Positions 9,001 to 64,000 of a stretch of DNA of 64,000 nt are shown here, piece after piece. Source of the stretch: Eledone cirrhosa. Lineage: Eukaryota. The notes beneath the pieces were generated by a model. That model was not told where the DNA came from, did no database searches, and saw nothing but the letters and a program-made list of their open reading frames with translations. Position 1 is the first letter of the stretch; every line of letters begins with the position of its first letter. The translations under genes were made by a program, and so were the position numbers. The stretch is from positions 95,790,001 to 95,854,000 of the forward strand of contig OZ024746.1 in the NCBI GenBank assembly GCA_964016885.1, in the 5' to 3' direction.

Positions 9001-12000
9001 AACCAAAGTATTTATATGATAGATAGTTCCACCAAATCTAGTGTTGATGAAGTGGCTACAATTCCTTACAGCAAATATATTGGTATAGAAACAACTGGAG
9101 ATACAAGAAGTGTAGTTCATATACATCACTTACCTTTAACTACTGAGATACTGTTTGATATTAGTATTAGTGTATCTAACATGAGCCTTGATGAAATCAG
9201 AGATACAACCCTATCAACATTGCAGGAAACAGCAAGTATTTATATAATTAACACAACTGATACTATACTTAGAGATACTATACATAGAGGTACTATACAA
9301 AGAGATACTATACATAGAGGTACTATACAAAGAGATACTATACATAGAGGTACTATACTTAGAGATCCCAGTGGAACAGAGATATCAAAAATAATCCAAG
9401 TTACACCCATTAAAAAACCTGATATAAAAATAAAAATTACAGCAACTGATGAAATGATTTCACTTACAGTCAGCAGTAAAACATCAGTGTTACATTTAAA
9501 AGCTAGAACCAAATTAATTTCTACTTCTCATACATCAAAACATTTATCTGTAGTATCATATAAAACAAGCAGTGGGTTAATTTCAAAGGAAAATGACACA
9601 GAAGCAGCAATTACAACAACATATTTTATTGTTCCTCATATGAAAGCTAAAAACTATACTGATCAGATTGTACTTCAAATGACACCTACATTAGAGAGTA
9701 GAAGCCATCTTGAAAACAGAACAGATATAATGCAAAGTTCTTTTCTTGAATTGCCAGATATCTTTTTTCTGTATACTGAATCACCAGAAATATCTACAAG
9801 ATTTGATGATATTCAATTGCTGCAAGAAAAACTTTTATATTCTAAAAAAAGAAAAGTGGCGAATGTTATCAACATAATTACAACAACAACAACAAGAATC
9901 AATATAACTATGTTACCATTAACAGAAACTATCTTTCCAACTTTACAAACAGTTAGTACCATAAACAATTATACTATTGCAATGCAATTGTTTACTACTG
10001 TGAGAAGTGTAAAGAAAACATCACAAAAGGAATATTATAAAAAATATAGCCACAGTTATAAATTAAGATCTAAATCAGTGACGTTTGAGACAATATATAC
10101 AAAAGTAACAGATAAAACAATGAAACCCAACCAAATCATGGAACAAATTGGCATAAAGGATATGCTGTATTTAAATACAGAACAAAACATGTTTGATTCC
10201 TTGTTATTGAACACTTTACTTATACCAACACTTGTTATTACAAAAGAAAGCAGTTCTTCCTATCAGAATCAGACCCAGAAGGATTCAGTGCTTCATAGTA
10301 GTAAGGTTCGTGATATTTTTATCCCATTCACTACGATAAAAACTTGTAAATATACAAAAGAAGACAGGACACCAACTTTAGATCAAACAATTGTGCTGAG
10401 AAGAACCTCTCCTGGCAGTTTCTCTCTGAGTAAATCTGGAGAGTACAGTTTGTCAACAGAATATACTTCCTCAGTTTCACAATTTATATTTGATAAAACA
10501 GAAGATGATAATTATTTTACAGATGAAATAATTTCTTATGATAAAAAAGGATTAATACTACCCATAACCAAAATAAAAAAGAAAGATTTACTCAAGGGGC
10601 TCACAGATTATACTACCCAAAGTAAGATCGATAAAGTAACATTGGGATATATTTATGGAATAGATACAGTAATAGTTAATAAAACCTATACTCCCCAACA
10701 AAGAGATACTGTTACAGTTACAAAATTTCCAAGCAGTGACAAGTCACAAGTTTTTTCTATAGATACATTCATAGTGACAACTTATTCAGGATTAGAAATG
10801 GTATTGGCAGTAACAACAATTTCAGACAAAACTAAAGCACCATTACATATATCAACTGAAGTTGGACATATCACCCCCATGATTCCACATAGTACTCCTC
10901 TAACTCCTAAGGCCACTATTACAGTACTACATACTACTTCACTAAATCCATATTCTGTCCTTACGATACCACACTCGACAGTTGTAACTTTACATATAGC
11001 TGTCACACAACTGAATATTACTACTATTACAGTACCAGACACTCTCTCAACAGAATCATATACAACCATTACATATTCTCATACTATTGAAATACCACAA
11101 ACAGCCACCACGTCTCGACATCCTCAAACTCTAATTCCATCCACATCTGCTACAATTCCTCATGGCACCTCTATATTACCACAACAAACAAGTGTATTAT
11201 CAAAGTCTACAACCAAATCAACAGATGCTGTTGTTACTGTAGCACAACATCACACAATACTTTCATACAGTGTCACTGAAGAAACATATACAACCTCTAT
11301 AAGTAGAAACAGCACAATAACATCACATATCAGAACTGTAACACAACATACCATAGTTGTAATACCACCTGACATACCAACAATAACATCATATAACACA
11401 ACAATAACACCATATAACACAACAATAACACCATATAACACAACAATAACACCATATAACACAACAATAACACCATATAACACAACAATAACACCATATA
11501 ACACAACAATAACACCATATAACACAACAATAATACCATATAATACAACAATAACACCATATAACACAACAATAACACCATATAACACAACAATAACACC
11601 ATATAATACAACAATAACACCATATAACACAACAATAACACCATATAACACAACAATAACACCATATAACACAACAATAACACCATATAACACAACAATA
11701 ACATCACATAACACAACAATAACACCATATAACACAACAATAACACCATATAACACAACAATAACACCATATAACACAACAATAACACCATATAATACAA
11801 CAATAACACCATATAATACAACAATAACACCATATAACACAACAACACCATACAACACAACAACACCATATACCACCACCACAACAACACCTTACAACAT
11901 AACAACAACACCCTACAACATAACAACAACACCATACAACACAACAACAACACCCTACAACACAACAACACCATACAACACAACAACAACACCATACGAC

Positions 12001-15000
12001 ATAACAACAACACCATACAACACAACAACAACACCTTACAACACAACAACAACACCATACAACATAACAACAACACCATACAACATAACAACACCATACA
12101 ACATAACAACAAAACCCTACAACACAACAACACCATACAACACAACAACAACACCATACAGCATAACAACAACACCATACAACATAACAACATATACCAG
12201 CACCACAACACCATACAACACAACAACACCATATACCACCACAACAACACCATACAACACAACAACACCATATACCACCACCACCACAACACCATACAAC
12301 ACAACAACAACACCATACAACATAACAACAACACCATATACCACCACCACAACAACATACAGCACAACAACAACAACATACAACATAACAACAACACCAT
12401 ACAACATAACAACAACACCATACAACACAACAACAACACCATACAACATAACAACAACACCATACACCACAACAACAACACCATACAACACAACAACACC
12501 ATACAACACAACAACACCATACAACATAACAACAACACCATATAACACAACAACACCATACAACACAACAACAACACCATACAACATAACAACAACACCA
12601 TACAACATAACAACAACACCATATAACACAACAACAACACCATACAACACAACAACACCATACAACACAACAACAACAACATACAACATAACAACAACAC
12701 CATACAACACAACAACAACTACATACAAAATAACAACAACACCATATAACACCACAACAATACCATACAACATAACAACACCATACAACATAACAACAAC
12801 ACCATATACCACCACCACAACACCATACAACACAACAACACCATACAACACAACAACAACAACATACAACATAACAACAACACCATACAACACAACAACA
12901 ACAACATACAACATAACAACAACACCATACAACACAACAACAACAACATACAACATAACAACACCATACAACATAACAACAACAACATACAACATAACAA
13001 CAACACCATACAACACAACAACAACTCCATACAAAATAACAACAACTCCATACAAAATAACAACAACACCATATAACACCACAACAATACCATACAACAT
13101 AACAACACCATACAACATAACAACAACACCATATACCACCACAACAACACCATACAACATAACAACAACACCATATACCAGCACAACAACAACACCATAT
13201 ACCACAACAACAACACCATACAACATAACAACAACACCATATACCACAACAACACCATACAACATAACAACAACACCATATACCAGCACAACAACAACAC
13301 CATATACCACAACAACAACACCATACAACATAACAACAACACCATATACCACAACAACACCATACAACATAACAACAACACCATATACCAGCACAACAAC
13401 AACACCATATACCACAACAACAACACCATACAACATAACAACAACACCATATACCACAACAACACCATACAACATAACAACAACACCATATACCAGCACA
13501 ACAACAACACCATATACCACAACAACAACACCATACAACACAACAACAACACCATACAACATAACAACAACACCATACAACATAACAACAACACCATATA
13601 CCAACACCACAACACCATACACCACCACAACACCATACAACACAACAACAACACCATACAACATAACAACGACACCATATACCAGCACCACAACAACATA
13701 CACCACCACAACACCATATACCAGCACCACAACACCATACACCACCACAACACCATACACCACCACAACACCATACAACACAACAACAACACCATACAAC
13801 ATAACAACGACACCATATACCAGCACCACAACACCATACACCACCACAACACCATATACCAGCACCACAACACCATACACCACCACAACACCATACACCA
13901 CAACTTTAACCTCACCTGACACAGGTATATCTCTATATAGTTTTATTGAAGCTCTCTATAACCTAACTGCCACACCACATAATATTACTATAACTCTGTA
14001 TAACACAACTACACCATTACATACCACAACTACTCCATTACATACCACAACTACTCCATTACATACCACAACTACACCATTACATATCACAACTACTCCA
14101 TTACATATCACAACTACTCCATTACATATCACAACTACAACATTACATATCACAACTACACCATTACATATCACAACTACTCCATTACATATCACAACTA
14201 CACCATTACATATCACAACTACTCCATTACATATCACAACTACACCATTACATATCACAACTACACCATTACATATCACAACTACTCCATTACATAATAC
14301 AACTACATCATTACATATCACAACTATATCATTACATATCACAACTACACCATTACATATCACAACTACTCCATTACATAATACAACTACATCATTACAT
14401 ATCACAACTATATCATTACATATCACAACTACAACATTACATATCACAACTACACCATTACATATCACAACTACTCCATTACATATCACAACTACACCAT
14501 TACATATCACAACTACTCCATTACATATCACAACTACACCATTACATATCACAACTACACCATTACATATCACAACTACTCCATTACATAATACAACTAC
14601 ATCATTACATATCACAACTATATCATTACATATCACAACTACTCCATTACATATCACAACTACACCATTACATATCACAACTATATCATTACATATCACA
14701 ACTACTCCATTACATAATACAACTACATCATTATGTCATACAACAGCATCATTACATATCACAACACTCACTGACGAAATATCATTACATAATACAACAT
14801 TAATATCATCTAACACGACTGTCACATCTGTAACTCCTCCTGACACAGATGTAACTCCACCCGACACAACTGTAACTCTATATAATGCAAGTGTAACTCC
14901 ACCTGACACATCTGTAACTACACCTGACACAGCTGTAACTACACCTGACATAGCTGTAACTCCACCTGACACAGCTGTAACTCCACCTGACATAGGCGTA

Positions 15001-18000
15001 ACTCCACCTGACACAGCTGTAACTACACCTGACACAGCTGTAACTACACCTGACATAGCTGTAACTCCACCTGACATAGCTGTAACTCCACCTGACATAG
15101 CTGTAACTCCACCTGACATAGGTGTAACTACACCTGACACAGCTGTAACTACACCTGACATAGCTGTAACTCCACCTGTCATAGCTGTAACTCCACCTGA
15201 CACAGCTGTAACTCCACCTGACATAGGTGTAACTCCACCTGACACAGCTGTAACTACAGCTGACACAGCTGTAACTACACCTGACATAGGTGTAACTCCA
15301 CCTGACATAGGTGTAACTCCACCTGACATAGGTGTAACTCCACCTGACACATCTGTAACTACACCTGACACAGCTGTAACTACACCTGACATAGGTGTAA
15401 CTCCACCTGACATAGGTGTAACTCCACCTGACATAGCTGTAACTCCACCTGACATAGGTGTAACTCCACCTGACATAGGTGTAACTCCACCTGACATAGC
15501 TGTAACTCCACCTGACATAGGTGTAACTCCACCTGACATAGGTGTAACTCCACCTGACATAGGTGTAACTCCACCTGACATAGGTGTAACTCCACCTGAC
15601 ATAGCTATAACTCCACCTGACATAGGTGTAACTCCACCTGACATAGGTGTAACTCCACCTGACATAGGTGTAACTCCACCTGACATAGGTGTAACTCCAC
15701 CTGACACAGCTGTAACTCCACCTGACATAGGTGTAACTCCACCTGACATAGGTGTAACTCCACCTGACATAGGTGTAACTCCACCTGACATAGGTGTAAC
15801 TACACCTGACATAGCTGTAACTCCACCTGACATAGGTGTAACTCCACCTGACATAGCTGTAACTCCACCTGACACAGCTGTAACTCCACCTGACATAGCT
15901 GTAACTCCACCTGACATAGCTGTAACTCCACCTGACACAGCTGTAACTCCACCTGACACAGGTGTAACTCCACCTGACATAGCTGTAACTCCACCTGACA
16001 TAGGTGTAACTCCACCTGACATAGGTGTAACTCTACCTGACACAGCTGTAACTCTACCTGACACAGCTGTAACTCTACCTGACACAGCTGTAACTCCACC
16101 TGACACAGCTGTAACTCCACCTGACATAGCTGTAACTCTACCTGACACAGCTGTAACTCCACCTGACACAGCTGTAACTCCACCTGACACAGCTGTAACT
16201 CCACCTGACACAGCTGTAACTCCACCTGACACAGGTGTAACTCCACCTGACACAGCTGTAACTCCACCTGACATAGGTGTAACTCCACCTGACATAGCTG
16301 CAACTCCACCTGACACATCTGTAACTCCACCTGACACAGCTGTAACTCCACCTGACACAGCTGTAACTCCACCTGACATAGCTGTAACTCCACCTGACAC
16401 AGCTCTAACTCCACCTGACACAGCTCTAACTCCACCTGACATAGGTGTAACTCCACCTGACATAGGTGTAACTCCACCTGACACAGCTGTAACCCTACAT
16501 GCTGCAAGTGTAACTCTGTATGACACAGCTGTAACTCCACCTGACACAGCTGTAACTCCACCTGACATAGGTGTAACTCCACCCGACATAGCTGTAACTC
16601 CACGTGACATAACTGTAACTCCACGTGACACAGGTGTAACTCCACCTGACATAGCTGCAACTCCACCTGACATAGCTGTAACTCCACCTGACACAGCTGT
16701 AACTCCACGTGACATAGCTGTAACTCCACCTGACATAGCTGTAACTCCACCTGACACAGCTGTAACTCCACGTGACATAGCTGTAACTCCACCTGACACA
16801 GGTGTAACTCCACCTGACATAGCTGCAACTCCACCTGACATAGCTGTAACTCCACCTGACACAGCTGTAACTCCACCTGACACAGCTGTAACTCCACGTG
16901 ACATAGCTGTAACTCCACGTGACATAGCTGTAACTCTACCTGACATAGCTATAACTCCACCTGACATAGCTGTAACTCCACCTGACACAGCTGTAACTCC
17001 ACCTGACACAGCTGTAACTCCACATGACATAGCTGTAACTCCACATGACATAGCTGTAACTCCATGTGACATAGCTGTAACTCCACCTGACACAGCTCTA
17101 ACTCCACCTGACACAGCTGTAACTCCACCTGACACAGCTGTAACTCCACGTGACATAGCTGTAACTCCACCTGACACAGCTGTAACTATACCTGGCACAG
17201 CTGTAACTCCACGTGACATAGGTGTAACTCCACCTGACATAGGTGTAACTCCACCTGACATAGCTGTAACTCCACCTGACACAGCTGTAACTCCACCTGA
17301 CATAGCTATAACTCCACGTGACATAGGTGTAACTCCACCTGACATAGGTGTAACTCCACCTGACACAGCTGTAACTCCACCTGACACAGCTGTAACTCCA
17401 TGTGACATAGCTGTAACTCCACCTGACATAGGTGTAACTCCACCTGACACAGCTGTAACTCCACCTGACATAGCTGTAACTCCACATGACATAGGTGTAA
17501 CTCCACCTGACACAGCTGTAACTCCACCTGACACAGCTGTAACTCCACCTGACACAGCTATAACTCCACGTGACATAGGTGTAACTCCACCTGACATAGG
17601 TGTAACTCCACCTGACACAGCTGTAACTCCACCTGACACAGCTGTAACTCCATGTGACATAGCTGTAACTCCACCTGACATAGCTGTAACTCCACATGAC
17701 ACAGCTGTAACTCCACATGACATAGCTGTAACTCCACATGACATAGGTGTAACTCCACCTGACACAGCTGTAACTCCACCTGACACAGCTGTAACTCCAC
17801 CTGACACAGGTGTAACTCCACCTGACACAGCTGTAACTCCACGTGACATAGCTGTAACTCCACGTGACATAGGTGTAACTCCACCTGACATAGCTGTAAC
17901 TCCACCTGACACAGGTGTAACTCCACCTGACATAGCTGTAACTCCACGTGACACAGCTGTAACTCCACCTGACACAGCTGTAACGCTACATGATGCAAGT

Positions 18001-21000
18001 GTAACTCTGTATGACATAGATAACACCACTATAATATCACCTCATGTCGGAACTGTAATATCAGATAATACCACCACCATAATATCCCACAATACAACTA
18101 TAGTATCTCATGTGATAAGTGTAACAGCATATGATATAACCATGATACTACATAACACAACTGTTGCTTCACGTAATAAATCACTGATTCAACATCCAAC
18201 AACAACATTAATAACACAATACACACCTCATGTAATGCTACATACAACATACTATATATCTAGTATAGATAATGTGACTGTAGAGTTATATACACCATAT
18301 ACAACATTGCAGAAAACTGTTAGACAATTGTATGTAACTAACTCCACAATCCATACTATGATTTCAAAAATTCAAGAAATAACTGCAACTGTGCACAGTA
18401 AAAATGCAACCAAGTATTCAGATACTACATCTCTCTATATGATGAGTAATATTTCAAAATACCTCAGTTCAACACACAGTATAACTAATGCAACACAAGA
18501 CACAAGTATTGTTACTTCACAAAACACAACTACAGTACTATATACTCTTTGGTTGACTTTAGATACAGACTCTTTGCTTCGTTCTACAGTTACTGTACCT
18601 GCATATACTATGCCTACATTTTCCACACTTTATTTACTGGGCATTACTCCTTCATATACTATGATTGAAAGTCTGAGTGTGTCTCTATACAAATCAGCTC
18701 CATTACTTAATACAACCACTGCACTACAACATTCAATCACTGCCTTATTATATGAAAGTAAAGCTACCTTATTTAGCAGAACAACATTACAAATGGCCAT
18801 TGCATATCCAGAGATGAAAGCTCCAAGCATCACAGCTGCAACTCCACATACAAACATTACAATGACAGACACAACCACTTCAGCATTGTATAGAATGAGT
18901 GTGACTCTACCTACAACAGATATCACATTATACATTCATACTAAAATACCACATTCAACAACTACACTTCTACGACACACACAAATAGAAACAGCAACTA
19001 TTTTAACATTAGACACAATAATTTCAACCAAAGACAGTGCCATTGAAACATTATATGAAACTACATCTGTCATATTAAATACAACAGATGTAATGATCCT
19101 TACAAAAGATGAAATATTTCATAAAATAACAGCTTACAGTTCGAAAACAATTACACAATTCCCGACAACTTCCATCCCACTTGGAACAATTTTCTTCTCG
19201 AGTATAGGACAATATATAGTTCCTGATGACTTTTCTGATTATCTAAATAAATCAACAAGTTCTTATATTGAATTCAGTTCTTATATTTCTATGCCACCTT
19301 ATGACTCTGATTCAGAGACAGTAAAAACAGTTATTAGAAAAGGGCTCTCAAGTATATCAATAGTTCGAATGGAGCATTTAGTTAAGTCATCAAGTGATAT
19401 AACATACACAGGAATAATAACTGACATACAAGAAATATTTCCTCAGAATAATATAACAGACAAGTTCATTATAAGTAGCCTGATGGAGACAAATACAACT
19501 TTCAAACTAGCCACAATTAAAATTTCAGATGTTTTTGATCCTAAACTACAAAAAGTCAGAAAATTTGGCTTCACATACCCAAAACAGAAGAAGAATCTGT
19601 CAGTGTTACATGAGCATGTGACTTCCACTCTAAGTTCTATTTCAAGAGATAACACCACTTTATTAACTTATTTTAAAGATATATCTTCTTCAAAGATTAA
19701 AAAGACACATGAAGTATCTAGACACCAAACAGCATTTTTTAATGTGACAATCCTGAAAAAAGAAACAGCATTTGATACAAAGAAATATATGGATGTAACT
19801 GAATTTTCTTCTACTCAAAGAGAAAAGGAAATTCTAGAAAAATCTGATAAATTTAGAATTAGAATCAAACCCAGAACTACATTTTATATATCTAAGGCTT
19901 TCTCAGAACCTTTCAAAAGAAAGAAAATTGAGTTGTTATCGGTGACCCCAACATTAAAATTACAGACACGGGAACGTTTTATAACATCGTATTTAAATGT
20001 TTCTAAATTAGAAGGTATCAAAGATATCCCTTCTTGCACTTCAGCAACAGAATTTCTTGCCTTATCTGTGACGAAATCATCAGGTTTTACAACTTTAACA
20101 TCAGATATTGTAAGACACCAAAACTTTACATTAACTGATTATATTTCCTTGAAAAAAATAACATTGCCTATTACACAGTTAACAAAAAGTGAAAAGCATC
20201 ATTTAGAAACAAGGTCGACATATTTCAGTAAAGAATTAGCAACATTTCAATTGAAGTCATATCCCTCAGTAGAAATTGAAGAAATAACTATGAAAACATC
20301 TACTGTATTAGAAACATCATATTTTTCTGTTTCTCCAGAAAAAGACTATGATATAACCATATTACAGTTCAAAGATTTAGATACTCCCACACGTGTTGAT
20401 AAGGGATATCCCATGGCAGTATATAATTATACTAATTGGGCAGGGTTCACGTGGTTATCCCAAATAATGAATGTGACATCCTATGAAGTAATGAATTATA
20501 CAGAAAAAGATAAATTAACTCAGCCATCTTTCAAAATTAAAGAAGTTACAGATTTTATTAAAATGTCAAAGATGGAATATAAATTAACAACAAACATTAT
20601 TCCTAGCCAGGAACAACTTGGTGCGCTTTCCTCTAGAATTTCAATCATGTCTTGCAGTAAAATGAAGATGTCTCACACAGTATTAAAGACAACTCCTCCT
20701 TTAGTTGTCTCGTCCAGAGCTAAAACCAGCCCAATATCCTTTGAGAATAAAACAAATTATGTTACCTGGAGTATTAATGGAACTTCATTATATTTAGACA
20801 AAAAATTTACTGTAAAGTCCACCAAATATAAAATTACATCTTTATCAAGTATTACAACTTATCCAGAGGATGATATGAAAGTGTATATAGATTCAATTCT
20901 GCCAGAATTTTCATCTTTATACGTTGAAACTTTTACAACTATATTGAAATATATATATATTTTTCCTAAACCTACTCCTAAAGATGAAAAAAATGAAACA

Positions 21001-24000
21001 ATATTACTGAGAAATAAAACACTTCATTGGACAAAAGATGATTTTGAATTCCTTACTGCCATATTTTATCTAACAACAGTCCATACACCCATTATTGAGA
21101 GTCATTATAAAATAAGTACACCTTTACCACAAAGCAGATTTCCTTACAGAACATTGGAAATTGAATCAATATCAAATAGAAGCCAGACAATTCCATTTAC
21201 ACAAAAAACTTTTAACATAAGTTTTACCATGATTGAACAAAAAAGACAAGACACATTTGTTCACTTACTTACAACATTTAGACCAGATTATTTCCATGAA
21301 AAGAAGATCAAAGTTTCAACAGACACAGATATAGCTTTACATTCTCATTCCAAGGAACCATTTCTCACAATGTTTGAGTTATCTACTTTTTCTGAGGTAT
21401 CACAAACTGAATTAATATTTGTTAAAATTAAACAAGAACATTCTACACAAGTGATGAAAAGACAAACACTATTTGTGGTTGATAAAACTTATAAAGATAT
21501 TATCTCTGAAAATGTAACAAGCAAGTGGCTAATGGCTGATTATAAAACCAAATTTACTACTACCTCTACTCAAGACAAAACATATCTGATCAAATTTCAG
21601 GGAAACACAAGTTTACAATTTGATCAAGTAACAGACTCGATAATTACTTTGAAAATAGAGCTTGGCTTTACACAAAGTATAGAAGTTCATTCCATAAAAA
21701 TACCAAAAATACTATTTGAATTAACCACGAAAGAACCATTTAAGTCAATCATAAAAATACCATTTGAGTCAACCACTAAAGAACCATTTAAGCCAACCAT
21801 GAAAATAGCATTTGAATCAACCACGAAAGAACCATTTGACTCAAATGGTATTTCCATGGAAATTCCATCTAAGTCAACCCTGGAAAGTATATTGCAGATA
21901 TGGTATACTAAGGAAAAAGCAAAATACCTTGATACCTTGACGCAGACAACTCTATTTCCTATATTTGTAAGAGAAACCAAAAGCATGATTTCAAAATACC
22001 CACTTAAAGACAGAATTAAAATGTTATCAGTTGTTGATACTTTTAATTCAGTTTTTAAAAATCTCACATTTGAAAGAGAAAATGTTACAAATATAACAGA
22101 ATCTCCTACATATAAATATCCTACAAAAATCACTGGAATAAGTAAAGAAATTACATCAGAAATAATGAGCATGTATTCAATGTCTCACCTAAAACAAATG
22201 ATTTCAGAAGAGATTTATTTGACTGACAAACGTTTAGTTTTACCTACAATTACCCCTAAACTGACATCAATACTGCAATCTCATGAATTATTTTCCACCA
22301 AAGAAATGCTATCTATAGGAAAACAGACACTTACCGAAAGCCCATTTACAATTCCAGAAATATTTACCTCTTTGAAACATAGGTCTGTTTCTGAAATGAC
22401 TTCTTTGGTTAGTCACAGTTTTAGTCCTATAACAAATATGTTAAGTCTCAGTATATTTCCTATAGTAACTATACCAGTTAACCAGAGTATTTATTCTATA
22501 ACACCAATACTATTTAATGATAGCATTTCTTCTATAACAAATATATCAGTTAACTATAGTAGTTTTCCACTAATAACTGTTCTCTTCAACTACAGCATTT
22601 TTCACCTTAAACTTATACCCTTCAACTATAGTACTTTTCCTACATCAAAAATACATACATATTTTAATCACAGTAGTTTTCCTATAGACACGCTAACATT
22701 TAACTATAGTATTATCCCAATAACAAGAAGCATATTATCAAGCCATATCATTTTCTCTACAACCACAACAGTATTCACTCTTAGCTTTTTTCCTAAATCA
22801 TTATTAAACCATAGTATTGTTGCTATAATAGATACAACCTTTAACTATAGTTCATTTCCAATCACTACTACATTATCTAACCACAGTAGTTATATGATAT
22901 CATATAACCAAAGTATTATTCCTATACCAACTCTCTCATCCAATCACAGCATTTTTATTATACAAACTCTATCATATTACCATCATATCGATTATTTAAT
23001 AACCTCACCATTTATTCATAGTATTGATACGATAACAACTACACCATATAACTACAGTATTGATACAATAACAACTACACCATATAACTACAGTATTGAT
23101 ACAATAACAACTACACCATATAACTATAGTATTGATACAATAACAACAACACCATATAACTACAGTATTGATACAATAACAACAACAGCATATAACTACA
23201 GTATTGATACAATAACAACAATATATAACTATAGTATTGATACAATAACAACAATATATAACTATAGCATTGATACAATAACAACCTCACCATATAACTA
23301 TAGTATTGATACAATAACAACTACACCATATAACTACAGTATTGATACAATAACAACTACACCACATAACTATAGTATTGATACAATAACAACTACACCA
23401 CATAACTACAGTATTGATACAATAACAACTACACCATATAACTACAGTATTGATACAATAACAACCTCACAATATAACTACAGTATTGATACAATAACAA
23501 CTACACCATATAACTATAGTATTGATACAATAACAACTACACCATATAACTACAGTATTGATACAATAACAACTAGACCATATAACTACAGTATTGATTC
23601 AATAACAACCTCACCATATAACTATAGTATTGATACAATAACAACCTCACCATATAACTATAGTATTGATACAATAACAACTACACCATATAACTACAGT
23701 ATTGATACAATAACAACTAGACCATATAACTACAGTATTGATACAATAACAACCTCACCATATAACTATAGTATTGATACAATAACAACCTCACCATATA
23801 ACTATAGTATTGATACAATAACAACTACACCACATAACTATAGTATTGATACAATAACAACTACACCACGTAACTACAGTATTGATACAATAACAACTAC
23901 ACCACATAACTACAGTATTGATACAATAACAACTACACCATATAACTATAGTATTGATACAATAACAACCTCACCATATAACTACAGTATTGATACAATA

Positions 24001-27000
24001 ACAACTACACCACATAACTATAGTATTGATACAATAACAACTACACCATATAACTACAGTATTGATACAATAACAACTATACCATATAACTACAGTATTG
24101 ATACAATAACAACTACACCATATAACTATAGTATTGATACAATAACAACTACACCATATAACTACAGTATTGATACAATAACAACTACACCATATAACTA
24201 CAGTATTGATACAATAACAACCTCACCATATAACTACAGTATTGATACAATAACAACTACACCATATAACTACAGTATTGATACAATAACAACTACACCA
24301 TATAACTACAGTATTGATACAATAACAACCTCACCATATAACTACAGTATTGATACAATAACAACTACACCATATAACTACAGTATTGATACAATAACAA
24401 CTACACCATATAACTACAGTATTGATACAATAACAACCTCACCATATAACTACAGTATTGATACAATAACAACTACACCATATAACTATAGTATTGATAC
24501 AATAACAACTACACCATATAACTATAGTATTGATACAATAACAACTACACTATATAACTATAGTATTGATACAATAACAACTACACCACATAACTACAGT
24601 ATTGATACAATAACAACTACACCATATAACTATAGTATTGATACAATAACAACCTCACCATATAACTACAGTATTGATACAATAACAACTACACCATATA
24701 ACTATAGTATTGATACAATAACAACTACACCACGTAACTACAGTATTGATACAATAACAACTGCACCACATAACTACAGTATTGATACAATAACAACTAC
24801 ACCATATAACTATAGTATTGATACAATAACAACCTCACCATATAACTACAGTATTGATACAATAACAACTACACCATATAACTACAGTATTGATACAATA
24901 ACAACTACACCATATAACTATAGTATTGAAACAATAACAACTACACCACGTAACTACAGTATTGATACAATAACAACTACACCATATAACTATAGTATTG
25001 ATACAATAACAACCTCACCATATAACTACAGTATTGATACAATAACAACCTCACCATATAACTACAGTATTGATACAATAACAACTACACCATATAACTA
25101 CAGTATTGATACAATAACAACTACACCATATAACTACAGTATTGATACAATAACAACTACACCATATAACTATAGTATTGATACAATAACAACTACACCA
25201 TATAACTACAGTATTGATACAATAACAACCTCACCATATAACTATAGTATTGATACAATAACAACTACACCATATAACTACAGTATTGATACAATAACAA
25301 CTACACCATATAACTATAGTATTGATACAATAACAACTACACCATATAACTATAGTATTGATACAATAACAACTACACCATATAACTATAGTATTGATAC
25401 AATAACAACCTCACAATATAACTATAGTATTGATACAATAACAACTACACCATATAACTACAGTATTGATACAATAACAACCTCACAATATAACTATAGT
25501 ATTGAAACAATAACAACTACACCATATAACTACAGTATTGATACAATAACAACTACACCACATAACTACAGTATTGATACAATAACAACCTCACAATATA
25601 ACTATAGTATTGAAACAATAACAACTACACCACGTAACTACAGTATTGATACAATAACAACTACACCATATAACTATAGTATTGATACAATAACAACTAC
25701 ACCATATAACTACAGTATTGATACAATAACAACTACACCATATAACTATAGTATTGTTACAATAACAACCTCACCATATAACTACAGTATTGATACAATA
25801 ACAACTACACCATATAACTACAGTATTGATACAATAACAACTACACCATATAACTATAGTATTGATACAATAACAACCTCACCATATAACTACAGTATTG
25901 ATACAATAACAACTACACCATATAACTACAGTATTGATACAATAACAACCTCACAATATAACTACAGTATTGATACAATAACAACTACACAATATAACTA
26001 TAGTATTGATACAATAACAACTACACCACATAACTACAGTATTGATACAATAACAACTACACCATATAACTACAGTATTGATACAATAACAACAATATAT
26101 AACTATAGTATTGATACAATAACAACTACACCATATAACTATAGTATTGATACAATAACAACTACACCAAATAACTATAGTATTGATACAATAACAACTA
26201 CACCATATAACTACAGTATTGATACAATAACAACAATATATAACTATAGTATTGATACAATAACAACTACACCATATAACTACAGTATTGATACAATAAC
26301 AACTACACCATATAACTACAGTATTGATACAATAACAACAATATATAACTATAGTATTGATACAATAACAACCTCACCATATAACTACAGTATTGTTCCA
26401 ATAATCACGACCACATATAACTACAGTATTGACTCCATAACAACTACACCATATAACCATAGTATTGTTCCAATAACAACTACAGTATTTAAACATAGTA
26501 TTCTTCTGACAACTTTATATTATAACTATACTATACTACCTGCGACAAACGTATCATATTATCACAGTATTGCTCCTATATCAACCTCACCATATAACTA
26601 TAGTATTTCCTCCATAACAATCATACCATTTAATCATAGTAGTTCCCCTATAAAAACCAGATTATTTCAGCTCAGTATTATTCCTACAATATCATTACCA
26701 GGTTACTATAGAATATCAACTAAAAGTAAATTTCCTCTCTTAGATATTCTATTTAACCAAAGCGTCTTCACTGAAAAACATGTATCATTTAAACATAGTA
26801 TGTACCTTTTAACTACTGTTGTATTTAATCATAGTCAAATTTCCCTAACAAGTTCATCATTTAGCTATAGTATTGGTCCTATAACAACTACATCCTTTAG
26901 CCCTAATATCACATCTGTATCCCTTGAGTCAATTCATAGTATTATTTCTACACCAAGTCTGATATCTAATCATTCTATTGTTATAACATCAATGAGCCCA

Positions 27001-30000
27001 GTATTCTTGATATCTAAACAACCATTGATCTACACAGACAGCAATAATATAACAACAGACGTTATACCCTTAGATGAGAAGGATTATACAATCTTTATTA
27101 ATAGAACTGATATAATAATAACTGACTGGAATAATTTGACAGTCATGGCTCAAATAGAAAGTAAGGCTCAAGTGGAAAATGTATCTGTCCCAGTTGTAAT
27201 TTTTCTAACTCAACATACATCACTTGAGATAGATATAACAACTGACCTTGACCTTTCTATACATGAAATACAAATAGATGAAAGTTTTCCAGTTGAGTAT
27301 TTTTCAATGTCACCATTTTCTCTCACCAAAACAAGTCCTACAATCTTAATAACTCAGACTAAAGGTATTATTGATGAGATCAGAGATTCTGGCAGTCCCT
27401 CAACAGAATATCCAACCATACAACCTACAATGACGTTTGAACACCTTAGGGAAGAAACAAGTACTATTATGTTAGTGACAATGAAAGAGCTTTTAGATAC
27501 TTCTTTAGTTTCCTCAAAATTATCAACAAGGGACAAGTTGAGAAAAGACTACAGTTATATTCAAACATCATTATTCACTGTAGAAACTGATAAGTCAAAA
27601 TTATTCTCCTTTAAGTCTAAGACTGAGCCCCATACTAAAACATATCTCCCTCAAAGGTCAGATTTTTATATTTCAAAGATACAGCTAAAATTGAACACCA
27701 CACCCTCTGAAACTTTCTCTGTAAATGTGATCTCCACAAAAAGTGTTTCATTCAAAGAACACAGCTCATTTACAATAGCTGACAAAATATCAACAGATAT
27801 CATAGCATTGGTAACTAAACTGAATTTACAAGAAATAACACCTAAATCTCTCACTGAATTTAAACAACTAGGTTTTCAACATTTTAATTTTTCAAAAGAG
27901 AGTTATTTACAAATTCAAACAAAAACATCCAGATTTCCAGATTTTCATTTGATGCTACACACTGTGACAGTATCGTCAAGTTTTTCAAATACATCTAAGT
28001 TAATGTTCAGTGAAGAAATTAAGGATTCTACCTACATTCCAGGCATTAAATATTTAAAGTATTTTATTTCTGCAAGAAATACTAGTCAGCTGATCCAAAC
28101 TTCATTATATTCAACCAATGAAACAAGGCAATTATTTCCTCAAATGACTTTCTCAAAATATCTTAGCAGACAGGAATTTTCGCATATTCATGTTCCATTT
28201 CAATCAGGAACAACTGTGGAGATGTATATTACAGATTCTGAATCACCAAATGATACAATCATAACCAGGCCTATATTGTTCTCACATTTCATATACACCA
28301 TTTCTAATAAGACATATAAAATACCAAAGTCAACTAGTTTAGAGGAGGACGAATACACTATGAGTTTTAAGATGACTCCTAAGTATATTTTGGGGGGTAC
28401 AATTACCAAAGATTTTAGTTTGATTTCAACAGTCTCCACAAAACCAAAGGAGTTTAAATTTCTAGATAAAACCATTTATTATCCTGATTTAGGTTTACAA
28501 CAAGAAAATGTATCAAGAGCCAGTGTTACAGAACTAGTTGAAAGTAAAACATCGGAAGTATGGACCAAATGGTTAGACAGTATTCCAGTGATCTTTTATC
28601 AAATAACAGATATAACAACAACACATTACCTTTTTAATTATACAAGTATTTCTACAGAGACTGATACATTTGAAGTTTCATCAATAGAATCAGCAGATAT
28701 TTATAAATTAACTGATACTACAATCATTCCAGTTATAGAGACATCAACATATATTACAATTATGAATTCCTCCTATTCTATCTTAACAAGCTATCTTAGA
28801 GAGCTGAAGTATTTTAAATATACAAATATAACCCAAATTACCTACAGTGATCTGGACTATATTACAGTGAAACCAATTTATAAACTCAGTACAGAAAAAA
28901 GTTCAAATGTTTCCTTGTTAAGCTTAAGAGATATTTTGATTGAATCAACTGAAACAATAAAACCAGATATTTCAGATGAAATTTCTACATCACAAGAGTC
29001 AGAAATGACCCTTTTCCAAACCCTTCCTACAAAGGAGATATATGGAACTTCAACAATTGATGTAGAAACTGATGTATATCCAAGAAAAAGTCCTGATTTA
29101 TTTTTAACACATATTACACACATTAAAATAAATCATACAGAAAATGTGTTAGATATTAAGACAAAAGTTGTTACACTGAAATCTCTTACTGATAACAAAA
29201 CTGTAATAAAGGGTAAAGATAGTTTCTTAGAAACTGATCCTAAAGAAGATGATTCTCTTGCTTATTCAACATTGTTTTCCCTTTTTAGCACAGCTTTAAC
29301 ATTAAATGTTGTAGGCATGAATATGTCTGTTAAAGAGAGTCCTTTGGACACTCTAGAAATTGGAAGACCAGATGATACTGAAGATTCTAAGCTAGATGTT
29401 TATATAACAAAAACAACAAACAAAACAACACCAACTACATTGATATACAGTTCTACTTTTCTGAAACAGCAGTTGGAGGCATACACAGTATTTGAAAAGA
29501 ATGGGTCACAATCAATTAGCCAACTTAGTAAAGACTATAAAGCAAGCATAAGTTCTTCTGAAATTAAATATAGTCCTACTTCTAAATTTCAGTTATTAGA
29601 TTCATGGAACACTACAGATTTGATAAGTACTACAACACTTTATAAAGCCAAACAGAAAAATGAAACAATTACAGTAGGAAGAAGTAGTTATGATTTCGTA
29701 TTTCAACGGACATTACTAACAGCAAATATATCAAAACTTCATTCTATTTACACCAGTGAATCTTATGAAGGGATAGAAATTGAGAAGACATTACCAGACT
29801 TTGATTCAGTTAAAACAATGGAAAGTATATATATTTCTACTATATATCAATTTGACATCCCATTAATTATAACAAAGGATTTTAGTACACAAACTTCAAC
29901 TATGTATCCTTACTTGATAAATACTTCTATAGAAGCATTCCAATGGCAGCTAAGTACCTACCCCAAGATGTTTGTAGTCTCTACAGATTTGACAGCTATG

Positions 30001-33000
30001 TTAACTAAACCAATAAGTAATATTACATTAGTTGAAGAAAAAGTTGATACAACTGAAATCAAAACATTCATAGTGAGATTAGTATCAAGAGAAACTAGTA
30101 AACCAAACCTTACATCCCCTACTATAACAACTGGTTATTCCAAACAAACTGATATTATTGATACTTATGTATCTCACATTTTTAGTACTGAAACTGTTTC
30201 TATGCCACTAATAACTACCTTGATGACTAAGGAAACATATTCCACCCCAGAGCAAGTTAGTATTTCTCAAACAAGAATGATATATCCAAGTGAGTTCAAA
30301 TTGGTTCAATTATCATCAAATAAGACGTTAAAAACCCCTGACATTATTTCCAGTATAGAAATTACAACTTTAGGGAAAGAAATCAGCATTTTGATGAGCA
30401 GAAGAAATTTTACATATTCCTCAAGGCATAGATCATTAAAATTAAAACCTACAACAATTCCATTTTCCTCAATGAAAAGGGTTTCAAAGAGTCAAATTAT
30501 TCCTTCTAAGAAACCCTCACTGAGAACAAAGCAGATACCTTTTATAACAACAGTAATTTATTTACCCAAACTAAAAAATGTTTCAAAGATATTTGAAATT
30601 ATTGTCACATCTACCATTAATAATGAAATACTTCAAGACAGAATAGATCAATATTTGTACACTTTCAATATTACAAAACTTCCAACTGTGGTTTTACAAA
30701 ACAATTTAACAACACCTACTATGGCATATAGTAAATCACATATTTCATCTAGTTTGCTTTCAACATTTTTTACCAGACAAGAAAAACAGACAAAGTTAAT
30801 AGACTTAAGAAGTGGGAAAACAATTGAAATGACTGAAACTGAATTATCGAAAGTTCTACATAAATCTCATTTATCAAGGAAATTTGTTGATGATTTTGTT
30901 TCTACTCAAAAATATTTTATTTATTTAGCAGAAAATACTACAATTGTTTCATATATCTTTAACGTAACTGATGAACACCCAACCAGTGTGAAACAAGACT
31001 CTTTATGGAAAATAAGAAGCAAGATAAAATTTCCATTAGAAACACACACAGATATTTCAACCAGCTATAAACAAGAGATTCATGAACAATCTTTTAAAAC
31101 TGAATCTATAAGATATCTTCCATCTAAAATACATAAAACAGAATTGGATTTTAGATATTTTGATAGTACAAAAATGTATCCCTCAACAAAATTATTTTTT
31201 CTCAGACCTCAGCCTACAACTAAAACAGAATTATTAGAAAGTCAACCTGATATCATTCAGATACAAGACATATATACAGATTCACCTCCTACTGTTCTAC
31301 CCATCCAAATAAGTAGTGAAACGGATAAACTAAAACAAATGTTTACTGTTTCATACATGTCCAGCATTAATATACATTTGTCTACATCAACAGCAGGTAT
31401 TAAACTAACTCCAGTTAAGACATATCAGACGTCAATCATCGAAATAGGATTTTTAACAAAACTTCTCAAATCAACTAGTGTTATGAGTACATCCCAGACA
31501 TTGCAATCAACAATTAGTGATATGATAGATAGCCACACTTCAGCTGCTATACCTATTATAATGGTCAGTCCAGCTACTAACACATATTCATCAATTACAT
31601 TACCACCACTGAGGGATAAGAAATACACAAGTAGACAACCATTCCAAAGCATAGCTTCATCTTTAATGCAAACAAAATTATTGAGCGATGGTTTGACAAT
31701 AAGCTTTATGGAATTTAAAACACCCAGAGATATATTGACCAAAGAGATAGCTATTACATCTATTGAAGACAGCAGTGGATTAACTAAACAAACATTTTCT
31801 AGTCATTTAATTGATGTACCTTCATTAAGTAGGTTTCAAATTTATGCCAGTGAGTTGCTAGCTCATACAACAATTAAAACAATTTATAAGTCTTTTGATG
31901 AGGAAGGTCCCACTAAAATGCTTACATATGAAACATTTTCAAAGCCAATTCACAGCCAATCTATGATTGATGACATACTTATGTGGAGCAAGGGTGTAGG
32001 TGTATTTCAAACTTCAGATATAACATTGACTGCTAAACTAAGATTAAAATCTACTCAAAAAATATACATTAAACCAATTCTAAAGAATACCACTGATAAA
32101 GAACTTCTATCTTCATTTATTGTTACGTCAGTTTTTTCAGAAGGACTTTTTGTATCATTTAATGATACTGTCCAATTTAATGATTCTAATTTAATGTATG
32201 TTATTACAACTATCAAAGTTCTCCCAGAAAGTTATGCTAGATCATCATTACCTTTTCATCACAGCATCAAAGGAAACACAACGATTGTAGAAATAGAGAC
32301 AGAGAGGGAAAAGACATTTTCGAAAATGTTGATTTTAAATGACTTTCCTTTAAGCACATCTACTAGAATCAAGAAAATAACACCAAGTGTAATGGTCACA
32401 GAAAAACTTGAACCTACGCAGTTTTTTAATGTATCACATGAAAAGTATTCCCAGGCCTTTGTTTTATCTCTAAGTAATATATCATTTGAGAATCAAACAA
32501 CATCTACTGTTGGGGAAAAAGGAACTCTGTACAAACACTATAAATTAAGTTATATCACACAAACAAATATATTAGCTGTTAAAAGAATGAATAGAAGTGA
32601 AATATACTTCAGTAAAGGAAGCACTGCAAAAACATACTCAACTACAAAGACATGGCCTGATATTTTATATGTTTCAACTAACGTTTCAAAGCCACTCACA
32701 ATATCATTTGTACATTTGAAATTCAAAAGTGTATTGAGTACTTCAACTGATACATCTGAACTACAGTCACTTCAGTCTATCACAGATTGGCCAGAGCTTT
32801 CATCATCAACTGTGATCTCTAGAGAAGCATTTACAATTATAACATCTATGGCATTCCAAACATCTCCAACTATAATCTTTAAATCACAGTTTACATCAAC
32901 AACTGTGGATTTTGTGATACAATATACATTACCAATGATAACATATAAAACTGTATCAACATCACTAGTTATGACTTCTACAAAACAAATTGACCTAGTG

Positions 33001-36000
33001 ACTATAACCTCTACAACACTGATTATATCAACTTTAACTCCAGCCAGATATATTACATCACCATTTAGGATCATTAAAGGACTATCCTCCATACCACTAA
33101 TTAGGACGTCTGTGGTACATACAACACCAAATATCACCTATAGCTATACAATACAGCCTACAACATCATGTGTGACTCCTAAAATAAAGACTACACCATC
33201 ATCGATGGCATCTATTACTCAAAGTATGATATTAACTAAACACTTGACAATATCATCAATGTTGAGCCTACACACAGAAATTATATCAGTAACTGTAACA
33301 TCTTTTATACAGTCCAGACATCCAACTATGACCCCGGTAACACAGTCTAAACCATTAGCTATGACCCTGGTAACACAGTCTAAACCATTAGCTATGACCC
33401 CTGCAACACAATCTATATCCCTAGCTATAACTCCTGTAACAGAATCTATATCACCAACTATGACCCTTGTAATACAGTCTAAATCACCAGCTATGGCCCC
33501 TGTAACACAGACTAAATCACTAACTATGACCCCAGTTACACAATCTAAAGCAGCTATGACCCTTGTAACACAGACTAAATCACCAACTATGACCCCTGTA
33601 ACACAGTCTAAATCAGCTATTACCTCTGTAACACAGACTAAATCACTACTTATGACCCCTGTAACACAGACTAAATCACTACTTATGACCCCTGTAACAC
33701 AATCTATATCAGTAACTATGACCCCTGTAACACAGTCAAAATCACTAATTATGGCTCCAGTAACAGAAACTGTATCACTAATTATGACCCCTGTAACAGA
33801 ATCTGTATCACTGATAGTGACCCCTGTAACAGAATCGGTATCACTATCTGTGACCCCTGTAACACAGTCTATATCACTAATTATGACCCCTGTAATAACA
33901 TCTGTATCACTGACAGTTACTCCTGTAACACAGACTAAATCATTAACTATAACCCCTGTAACAGAATTTGTATCACCAGCTATGACCCCTGTAACACAGT
34001 CTGTATCACTAATTATGACCCCTGTAACAGAATCTCTATCATTAAATATGACCCCTGTAACAGAATCTTTATCATTAACTATGACCCCTGTAACAGAATC
34101 TCTATCATTAATTATGACCTCTGTAACAGAATATCTATCACTAGCTATGACCCCTGTAACAGAATCTGTATCACTGACAGTCACCCCTGTAACAGAATCT
34201 GTATCACTAACTATGACCCCTGTAACAGAATCTGTAACACTGACTAAGTCTCCTATACTTTTGTCAAGATCACTAACTGTGACATTGAAAACACCACCAA
34301 CTAGGATTATTAAAGCACAATTGACATCACTAACTACTACTTTATTAATACAGACAAGATCAGAAATTGTGCCCTATACAAGACAGTTTGTTCAGTCGAC
34401 TCTGACAATTCCTCTTCTTCTATCAGGAACTACACCATTAACCACAAAGAAAATATCTGTTTATTCATCACCTCAGATATTACAACAGTTGATAACAAGT
34501 GATACTTTTAGTCAGATATACCATAGTGATGCTCAACATTTACTGACTTCATTACAAACAACACATCCCTACTCTGATGCAGCAATAACCACTAGAATAA
34601 TAACTAAAGTATTTGATGAAACATTGAAAACTCTGTCATCAGACAAAATGTCTAACTGGGTTACCTCAACAATTACAGGGAAAATAATTGATGATTATAG
34701 TACAATGACAAGTATTATAGATGTAAGTCTTATGAAAATCATTATCAGCAAAGAAGTTAATGAAACAACTACAAAAGACACTGTTAGTTTCCCATATTAT
34801 CTCTATACTAGACATATATTTAATATAACTGCTGCCAGCAAAAAATCCACAGAAATATATGTAGGCACCACAAAATCTATTAAAATACCCCAAATACTCA
34901 AAGCTACTGAAAAAATGGCTGGAGATTTTAATGAAATTCAAATCAATATGTTTGTGGCAACATTCACAATTGGTGTCTTATTTGATGGGCTAAAATTAAA
35001 AGAATTTACTGAATTACTTTCCAAGGAATCTTCAACATTTTTATCATTACCTAAAGGTTTAACTCACACAACTACCCCCTTTACAATACTTACATCTCTT
35101 GACAGAAATATAACTGTGGACATGACTGATGTTAGTTACCATAGGAAGCAGGTTTTAATTTCTGAAGATCTGGGGGTTACTAGTGTTGTGAATTTCACTG
35201 ATACAAGAGGTTCTTCTATGATTATAACACTGACTCCATTACGTGACTATTTTATAAGTACTTCTGGAATAATTGATGCTTCTTGGTTTTCACTGACTGA
35301 GACAACAAAAAATATAACAGATTACATTACAACAACATTTACAACAATTCAAACAACTTCTTCAGAATTGTATACAACAAGTTATATAACTAAAGATATT
35401 TCAATAGCAAAATGGCTGGATATGATAACAGATCATCTATTTATAACTTATTCAAACACAACTACTAAAGTTGAACATTTAATAGGACCAACAACTTCAT
35501 ACAGCAAAGGTATTAATGGAACAAAAACATTCATAGAATTAAAATCCTCAAAATATCCAGAAGCTTTATCATCTTTTCCTCATTTGACTGTGCATGTCAT
35601 AGATGAAGACATTGAATCAACTACTAATACTACTACATATAGTACTGAAAGATATACAATTATTGTGATACCATCAACTGCTGCCACTACACACAGTGTT
35701 GGGGGACATATAATTATTGAGATACCATCAGCTACTACCATTACACATAGTACTGAAAACTATACAGTTATTGGAATACCATCAGCAGCATCAACAATTC
35801 AAATTCAAAAATCCCCCAAAATGCTCACTCTTAAAAAGAAAACTTCATTTATCACAGATATAGATATTAAATCATTAACTACACATCTTTCAGTTCTTCC
35901 AAAATTTTTCACTGATAAATTTTCAGAAAAATACAATTATACTATGAAAGACGACGGTAAAATATTGACAAGTATTTCAACTGAAATATTTGATATTAAA

Positions 36001-63999: not shown

Positions 64000-64000
64000 A
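62830..64000 (+). repeat. 45-nt coding repeat, about 26 units and truncated by the window end, VSTIPDHVTSGDITA
   Basis: Tandem GTTAGTACTATACCAGACCATGTGACATCTGGAGATATAACAGCA. Confidence 0.95.

Follow-up and report, generated by a model that had tools for sequence, protein, structure and literature searches.

A 128.75-kb stop-free exon in Eledone cirrhosa predicts a MUC4-like tethered mucin with stalk asparagines nearly confined to sequons

In the octopod Eledone cirrhosa (assembly GCA_964016885.1, genome of 3.0 Gb), a 64,000-nucleotide stretch of contig OZ024746.1 (G000:C6:95790001-95854000, forward strand; hereafter the window) contains a tandem array whose 12-residue units carry the N-glycosylation sequon N-Y-S. 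Does this NYS array constitute a dedicated N-glycan domain, as had been proposed in an earlier reading of the window (the sequence-only reading), or is it one element of something larger? That reading overlooked that the array belongs to a MUC4-like gene and lies in one uninterrupted reading frame of 128.75 kb, which was followed here with 100 kb added on either side of the window. The predicted protein is of a known kind but of extreme size, and its rule for asparagine (Asn) is unusually strict. The NYS array is probably one of the repeat blocks within the extracellular stalk of an octopod MUC4-like tethered mucin with a single-copy gene, and follows a general Asn rule instead of forming a domain of its own.

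The reading frame in question extends well beyond the window, by 17.4 kb before and 47.3 kb after it:

Window 1..64000, + strand: part of the giant coding exon inside the window, 21,333 codons without a stop (frame scan)
G000:C6:95772572-95901322, + strand: whole giant exon, 128,751 bp, 42,917 codons, AG/GT boundaries, phase 1-1 (from the sequence)

Frame +1 is open across all 64 kb of the window, whereas the other five frames contain 643-2,457 stops each and were rejected as coding alternatives; long minus-strand open reading frames (ORFs) were likewise rejected as genes, being shadows of repeats. Over the 264 kb analyzed, the stop-to-stop frame comprises 42,948 codons in sequence without any N. 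The exon is bounded by a pyrimidine-rich AG acceptor at its 5' end (called from sequence alone) and a GTAAGA donor at its 3' end, both in phase 1. The 23,117 non-repeat codons contain no stop, against 1,043-1,774 expected from shuffles; the period is divisible by 3 in 70 of the 72 high-scoring tandem-repeat rows; and no non-tandem duplicate was found in the repeat-masked exon, by which non-tandem duplication within it was rejected. It follows from these three observations that the giant reading frame is maintained by selection. Tandem repeats make up 46% of the exon and include 35 blocks of 100 amino acids (aa) or more. The composition is that of a MUC4-like repeat exon (Thr 17.5%, Ser 11.9%, Pro 5.8%; 12,599 Ser/Thr in total), the base content is A-rich (37.7% A), and exon residues 3-16 form a hydrophobic signal-like stretch (9-residue hydropathy up to 3.1).

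Sequons are spread over the entire exon, which encodes 859 of them and 1,023 Asn, and they are concentrated in six arrays:

Window 23020-26487, + strand: sequon-dense array with 96 sequons (NYS block)
Window 11377..13905, + strand: sequon-dense 7-aa array of the PYNTTIT/PYNITTT type, 87 of 87 Asn in sequons
C6:95889946-95900244, near the 3' end of the exon and outside the window: four further sequon-dense arrays (42, 28, 23, and 20 sequons)

Among the blocks of at least 100 aa, 6 of 35 carry 20 or more sequons and 17 are devoid of Asn; the 7-aa array, with 10.3 sequons per 100 aa, is denser than the NYS array. The same preference is found outside the repeats. In the non-repeat spacers, 502 of 646 Asn residues lie in sequons against 25.8% expected, while 13 other residues in the same context gave 21-30%; with 250 aa around each array removed, the spacer count is 252 of 361. 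Counted in 22 bins of 2,000 aa, the sequon share of Asn reaches 67% or more in 20, the exceptions being the first two bins with 38% and 50%. Beyond residue 950, Asn occupies 8.3% of the sites followed by X-S/T and 0.56% of the others, the expectation being 6.5% under a crude neutral model from base composition. Thus Asn is nearly confined to sequons along the whole stalk, and the exon-wide signal is mainly a loss of bare Asn and less a gain of sequons. The folded ectodomain shows a weaker bias (17 of 57 Asn in sequons).

Against this background, the array that raised the question can be described in detail:

Window 23050..26427, + strand: homogeneous 36-bp/12-aa array with 95 N-Y-S sequons (TRF, sequon count, core alleles)

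The sequence-only reading had spoken of about 95 tandem N-Y-S sequons, and exactly 95 were counted at these positions in frame +1, spaced by 12 aa (89 times) or 11 aa (five times). These core units were located by their NYS, whereas Tandem Repeats Finder (TRF) gives 96.7 copies at 23020-26484 (period 36 bp, 92% matches). The core consensus, TPYNYSIDTITT, occurs 45 times as an exact unit, and 84 NYS units comprise 27 distinct unit sequences (core composition: Thr 30%, Ile 17%, Tyr 16%). An intact N-X-S/T sequon with both N and S is kept in all 95 units, with Asn encoded by AAC in every case and Ser by AGT in 94 and AGC in one; Tyr immediately precedes the Asn in 81 of 95. With the first unit and the five of 11 aa set aside, the remaining 89 units (12 aa each) carry 16 distinct amino-acid-changing alleles, none of them at the Asn or Ser column (p=0.023); Tyr5, Ile7, and Ile10 are likewise free of such alleles and as invariant as Asn and Ser. 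Over the wider region 22410-26990, 117 of 119 Asn fall within N-X-S/T. The sequon types there (NYS 101, NHS 8, NQS 3, and one each of NDS, NIS, NYT, NVS, and NIT) include every variant that had been named earlier (NQS, NDS, NYS, NHS, and NYT). All 63 genome-wide matches to a 29-nt repeat pattern lie within this one array, which excludes a dispersed satellite or mobile repeat. No Pfam family matched the NYS region, and an ESM Atlas search with it returned no match at 0.9 or more.

On both sides, the array passes into degenerate copies of its unit:

Window 22408..23040, + strand: left degenerate flank, 18 units of the 12-mer, 13 of 14 Asn in sequons, alignable to the related protein P0003
Window 26446..26990, + strand: right degenerate flank, 15 units, 9 of 9 Asn in sequons, alignable to P0003

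The sequon was said to persist in these flanks while most other positions drift, and a per-position conservation analysis had been suggested as a check. Aligned to the periodic core consensus, the 33 degenerate 12-mer units bear this out for serine: Ser6 is the best kept column (27/33), and 22 of the 23 flank Asn lie in sequons against an S+T content of 31-33%. Asparagine does not stand out in this way, Asn4 (19/33) ranking between Ile7 (22/33) and Ile10 (18/33), and the sequon is still present in just 19 of the 33 units. Thr11 (15/33) and Thr12 (15/32) follow, and the remaining six columns match in 2-9 of 32-33 units. With the tested column masked in the same alignment, the counts become 22 for Ser, 18 for Asn, 18 for Ile7, and 16 for Ile10 of 33, so that Ser still stands out and Asn remains on a par with the two isoleucines. 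Ser or Thr stands at +2 in all 19 units with Asn versus 10 of the 14 without it (Fisher p=0.024). Taken together, the flank and core tests lend modest support to a constraint on the sequon.

A protein search with the array region among 1.84 billion representatives returned a single match, P0003 (51% identical), which aligns on both sides of the NYS array at 55-57%. Its counterpart of the array is a degenerate 254-aa block with 14 sequons and no homogeneous array; between two shared anchors, the distance is 1,505 aa here versus 229 aa in P0003. Blocks at the 3' end of the exon differ in the same direction (604 aa here versus 33-34 in relatives, and 305 versus 95 aa). As the relatives appear to hold short degenerate versions of the same units, their blocks fit a recent amplification in this genome. 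Where P0003 and P0001 can be aligned, the Asn of sequons is kept between species in 40 of 63 cases versus 265 of 460 for polar residues (p=0.42), and sequon Ser/Thr in 52 of 62 versus 344 of 479 (p=0.048); 36 of 63 whole sequons are shared, and 58 of the relatives' 75 Asn lie in sequons. Individual sequon sites thus seem to turn over while the Asn rule persists among relatives. Of 1,400 candidates in a search for cephalopod models of 3,045-5,000 aa, 4 distant proteins were returned, and none of these bore a cephalopod name. The proposal of a special, separately selected NYS domain finds little footing in these results: Asn is kept no better than Ile7 and Ile10 in the flanks, Tyr5, Ile7, and Ile10 are as invariant in the core, sequon Asn is conserved between species no better than polar residues, the homogeneous array is missing in the one relative found for this region, and five other sequon-dense arrays as well as the spacers follow the same rule.

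The identity of the gene is indicated by its 3' part. Downstream of the giant exon and on the same strand, 16 exons mapped by relatives' proteins (C6:95908262-95940256) encode NIDO, a Cys-rich region, VWD with GDPH, EGF-like modules, a membrane helix, and a tail. AG is present at all 17 acceptors and GT at 16 donors of the model, and the giant exon joined to the 16 exons yields 43,872 aa in phase with the sole stop at the end, a lower bound for the protein. NIDO (PF06119) is recognized in two exons (48.5 and 29.2 bits, cut-off 25). The first VWD exon, scanned alone, scores 18.3 bits, below the cut-off of 22.9, and the whole domain of relatives 30.8-37.3 bits; GDPH is located at residue 352 of the C-terminal part, where cleavage is predicted, and two Argonauta models have GDSH at this position. 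An EGF hit was obtained in P0006 (22.2 bits, cut-off 21.5) and none in two of the gene's own exons scanned singly; the EGF-like, membrane helix, and tail exons align to P0002 and P0006. A PDB sequence search with P0002 gave no match. The 426-bp Cys-rich exon between NIDO and VWD is 88% identical to O. bimaculoides mucin-4-like and 72% to Argonauta hians mucin-like, the 2 matches among 69 candidates. The C-terminal 955 aa share 81% identity over 954 aa with Argonauta P0006 and 90% over 621 aa with O. bimaculoides P0004, and the O. bimaculoides and Argonauta models read through the exon junction that follows the giant exon here. Close paralogues of the Cys-rich exon or of the Cys-containing N-terminal part of the giant exon were rejected, each having one genome match. 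The earlier interpretation is supported in that the repeat is coding and belongs to a mucin, predicted here to be a type I membrane protein, so that its sequons would face the lumen of the endoplasmic reticulum (ER); it is not supported as regards a distinct, specially selected domain. NIDO itself has 12 matches on 6 contigs of the genome; the other loci are found at G000:C6:100711971-100712246 (4.8 Mb downstream, same contig and strand) and on C7, C8, C21, C28, and C4.

As to the product, there is somewhat better than an even chance that the 128,751-nt exon is spliced whole into an mRNA of over 131 kb, encoding a precursor of some 43,900 aa, and that selection against unglycosylated Asn in its stalk is nearly absolute. 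Such a precursor would have a mass of about 4.8 megadaltons before glycans, bear up to about 860 stalk N-glycans, and be longer than titin, with the NYS block as the most regular of several N-glycan brushes; the searches made here turned up no longer coding exon or animal protein. By analogy with what is generally known of tethered mucins, after inclusion of the giant exon as a whole the chain would be threaded into the ER, where oligosaccharyltransferase would glycosylate most of the 859 sequons on emergence. Golgi enzymes would O-glycosylate part of the Ser/Thr residues, the GDPH site would self-cleave as in MUC4, and convertase-type cuts at KR-DI sites may shed parts of the stalk into the mucus of skin or gut. 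Within the stalk, Asn would be tolerated only where glycosylation is possible. The present array would derive from an old degenerate block of sequon-bearing 12-mers that unequal exchange recently expanded again, giving about 95 nearly identical copies; the same would have happened to dozens of further blocks, the majority with few or no Asn. The NYS block would form a mixed N-/O-glycan brush with about one N-glycan per 12 residues, potentially serving hydration, spacing, and protease shielding. An extended chain rises by 0.25-0.35 nm per residue, which would make the NYS block 0.3-0.4 micrometre long and give the chain a length of 11-15 micrometres. The report of a mucin-4-like protein in the skin mucus of Octopus vulgaris (PMC11431876) speaks in favor of this reading.

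The candidate convertase sites include one within the window:

Window 36136..36156, + strand: KR-DI dibasic site preceded by Arg, candidate convertase cut (motif chosen after inspection)

Arg-preceded KR-DI sites occur at exon residues 523, 4,475, and 17,858 against 0.1 expected in shuffles, for a motif picked post hoc; the first two lie upstream of the window (G000:C6 about 95774140 and 95785996).

Several points weigh against a giant tethered mucin translated from the whole exon. The gene model derives from genomic sequence and relatives' models, and these models cover 670-1,076 aa of the stalk plus one 1,225-aa middle piece; their blocks may be short because gene models or assemblies jumped gaps. 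A protein search with the initial 871 aa of the exon gave 0 matches among 6,349 candidates (479-1,525 aa only). A scan for a self-contained signal-peptide exon with an ATG found none convincing in 82 kb upstream, nearly all of the 81 candidates being microsatellite translations. Neither the Cys-rich exon nor the three full relatives show a Pfam AMOP match. Most cryptic splice and polyadenylation (polyA) signals are not depleted in the spacers (GTAAG 48 vs 54 expected, AATAAA 77 vs 72). The exon is phase-symmetric and A-rich, and thereby resembles regulated giant cassette exons as these have been described (PMC10901741). Array lengths come from one assembly of an exon that is nearly half tandem repeat. 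N-X-S, the prevailing sequon of the NYS array, is reported to be the less efficiently used type (PMC12818257), and the skin-mucus protein may be the product of another gene. A search with window 18200-22400 listed no RNA dataset that contains it; the three sequencing runs that it found behave as genomic DNA of one sample, possibly the assembly source, with contigs that cross from the exon into the intron; as genomic DNA, they are silent on expression.

The splice signals bear on an alternative in which the frame is under coding selection and internal donors, acceptors, or polyA sites give rise to shorter isoforms, each with part of the stalk. This is unlikely, although the exon offers 51 GTAAG and 84 AATAAA motifs in total and looks like a cassette exon: the absence of any stop or frameshift and a sequon bias in nearly every 2,000-aa bin indicate that all parts are read in the same frame, skipping of the whole exon would delete the signal-like stretch, and AGGT[AG] is depleted in the spacers (33 vs 63.6 expected, z -4.6), as are T6 runs (23 vs 47 expected). 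Exons of tens of kb are, moreover, reported to be spliced in human mucins. If instead the great length were an assembly artefact, with over-expanded arrays or duplicated segments, the high repeat content and the single assembly would speak for it; yet the 35 repeat blocks contain no frameshift, 84 NYS units fall into 27 distinct sequences, the masked exon has no non-tandem duplicate, and the 23,117 non-repeat codons leave an exon of >69 kb even with every array removed, which makes this explanation the least probable of all.

Two further alternatives concern the NYS array itself. It could be a periodic lattice of N-glycans, distinct from the rest of the mucin and specially selected for a function such as lectin or microbe binding or a defined spacing, as the unbroken N and S of the 95 core units, their freedom from the 16 amino-acid-changing alleles (p=0.023), and the 14 sequons retained in the degenerate block of P0003 might suggest; Tyr before Asn would also suit such a function, since an aromatic residue at -1 or -2 is reported to favor sequon occupancy (PMC12818257). 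The homogeneity of a young array nevertheless accounts for the invariance, which Tyr5, Ile7, and Ile10 share equally; Asn is gone from 14 of the 33 flank units, P0003 lacks the array, and the spacers and five other arrays show the same bias, so a lattice is rather improbable. Very improbable is a beta-solenoid with Asn and Ser ladders in which sequons would be a by-product. The unit is rich in beta-formers (Thr, Ile, and Tyr), and its conserved columns include two Ile and an aromatic position; against this stand the five 11-residue units, frequent indels in the flanks, Pro in most units, the coupling of Asn to Ser/Thr at +2 in unrelated spacers, and the lack of a Pfam match. One block among many in a MUC4-like stalk is therefore the preferred reading of the array.

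Other features of the locus merit mention. Asn-free arrays of contrasting chemistry (window 44506-46821, 47125-48363, 52690-54972, and 37036-38361) comprise charged Lys/Arg/Asp/Glu, acidic Asp-Val, Tyr-Arg-Pro, and Glu/Gln/Met types, giving the stalk the character of a block copolymer. Cys beyond exon residue 950 occurs at 0.14 of expectation, and CpG is strongly depleted in the spacers across the whole exon (287 vs 713 expected from synonymous shuffles). Near the N-terminus (L010:4551-5186, exon residues about 660-870), eight Cys are spaced by 19-20 residues with one gap of 49, within a recurring hydrophobic-x-hydrophobic-x-L/V-x-C motif. This part has a single genome copy and no Pfam, homologue, or Atlas match; possibly it is a small disulfide-linked or multimerising domain. 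In an intron of the gene (L025:4857-5789), ORF pieces with a PHD-finger match are presumably retroelement-like. Intergenic or intronic tandem arrays at L016:947-7236 and L026:876-3179 are stop-free in several frames simultaneously, for as many as 2,029 codons, and are, unlike the giant exon, probably non-coding shadows.

If expressed whole, the protein would be roughly double the size of the largest reported human mucin allele and longer than titin, and the gene would show how far several processes can be stretched: exon definition, the silencing of splice and polyA signals that number dozens inside the exon, the export of the mRNA, and glycosylation during translation across tens of thousands of residues. 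The 15-fold gap in Asn frequency between sequon-ready and other sites, over about 22,000 non-repeat residues of one protein, offers an unusually clean system in which to study why bare Asn is avoided by disordered ectodomains. Polymers densely decorated with N-glycans could be modelled on the NYS array, but taken as a separate domain the array is less of a result than its host gene. A survey of Creative Commons PMC and bioRxiv literature returned no giant octopus mucin exon and no mucin with one sequon per repeat, a weak absence given that some queries used strict terms.

Certain mucin-like stalks of viruses and rodents have repeats with sequons, and ORFs larger than this frame exist in bacteria. 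The closest known systems are the octopod mucin-4-like models (O. bimaculoides XP_014785347.1 and XP_052824421.1; Argonauta hians GAB1598474.1 and GAB1609470.1), which are likely orthologues of this gene. They share with it C-terminal exons of 81-90% identity, the stalk-exon junction, and an alignable last part of the stalk, but they comprise 1,586-1,739 aa, begin inside the stalk, and have short repeat blocks without the giant exon. This suggests that public models of this kind may miss most of the protein, a point of consequence for proteomic work on skin mucus.

Human MUC4 is described with the module order PTS (proline-threonine-serine) domain, NIDO, AMOP, GDPH, VWD, EGF, transmembrane segment, and tail, and its PST part as O-glycosylated (PMC8616066); its longest variable number tandem repeat allele is given as 27,843 bp (PMC13345508). 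The octopod gene resembles it in having one huge Ser/Thr-rich exon followed by the same module order with GDPH, and differs by its 128,751 bp and its mosaic of 35 blocks, 23,117 non-repeat codons, and 859 sequons. The gene is accordingly likened to vertebrate MUC4 by predicted module order, without a Pfam AMOP and without implying orthology. Human MUC12 reaches up to 23,080 aa and has been named the largest coding exon of the human genome (PMC13345508), while exon 3 of MUC16 exceeds 21,000 nt (PMC3467050). Like them, the present gene would encode a tethered mucin with one very large coding exon. Unlike MUC12 and MUC16, the C-terminus of which is SEA, it has a NIDO-VWD C-terminus and is about twice as long as the longest MUC12 allele.

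Mucin4-like skeletal proteins of corals are reported with NIDO-AMOP-VWD-EGF and N-terminal TSP1 domains (PMC4890752); they share the module set with this gene, which points to an old and widespread set, and a giant glycosylated stalk goes unmentioned in the portion of that report considered here. In length, the predicted mucin of at least 43,872 aa falls between titin and PKZILLA-1, which has 45,212 aa, a 136,071-nt transcript, and 17 exons and is about 25% above titin (bioRxiv 10.1101/2024.01.29.577497). PKZILLA-1 is an algal enzyme with RNA and peptide support, whereas a single exon holds 98% of the codons for the predicted protein described here, an animal mucin rich in repeats.

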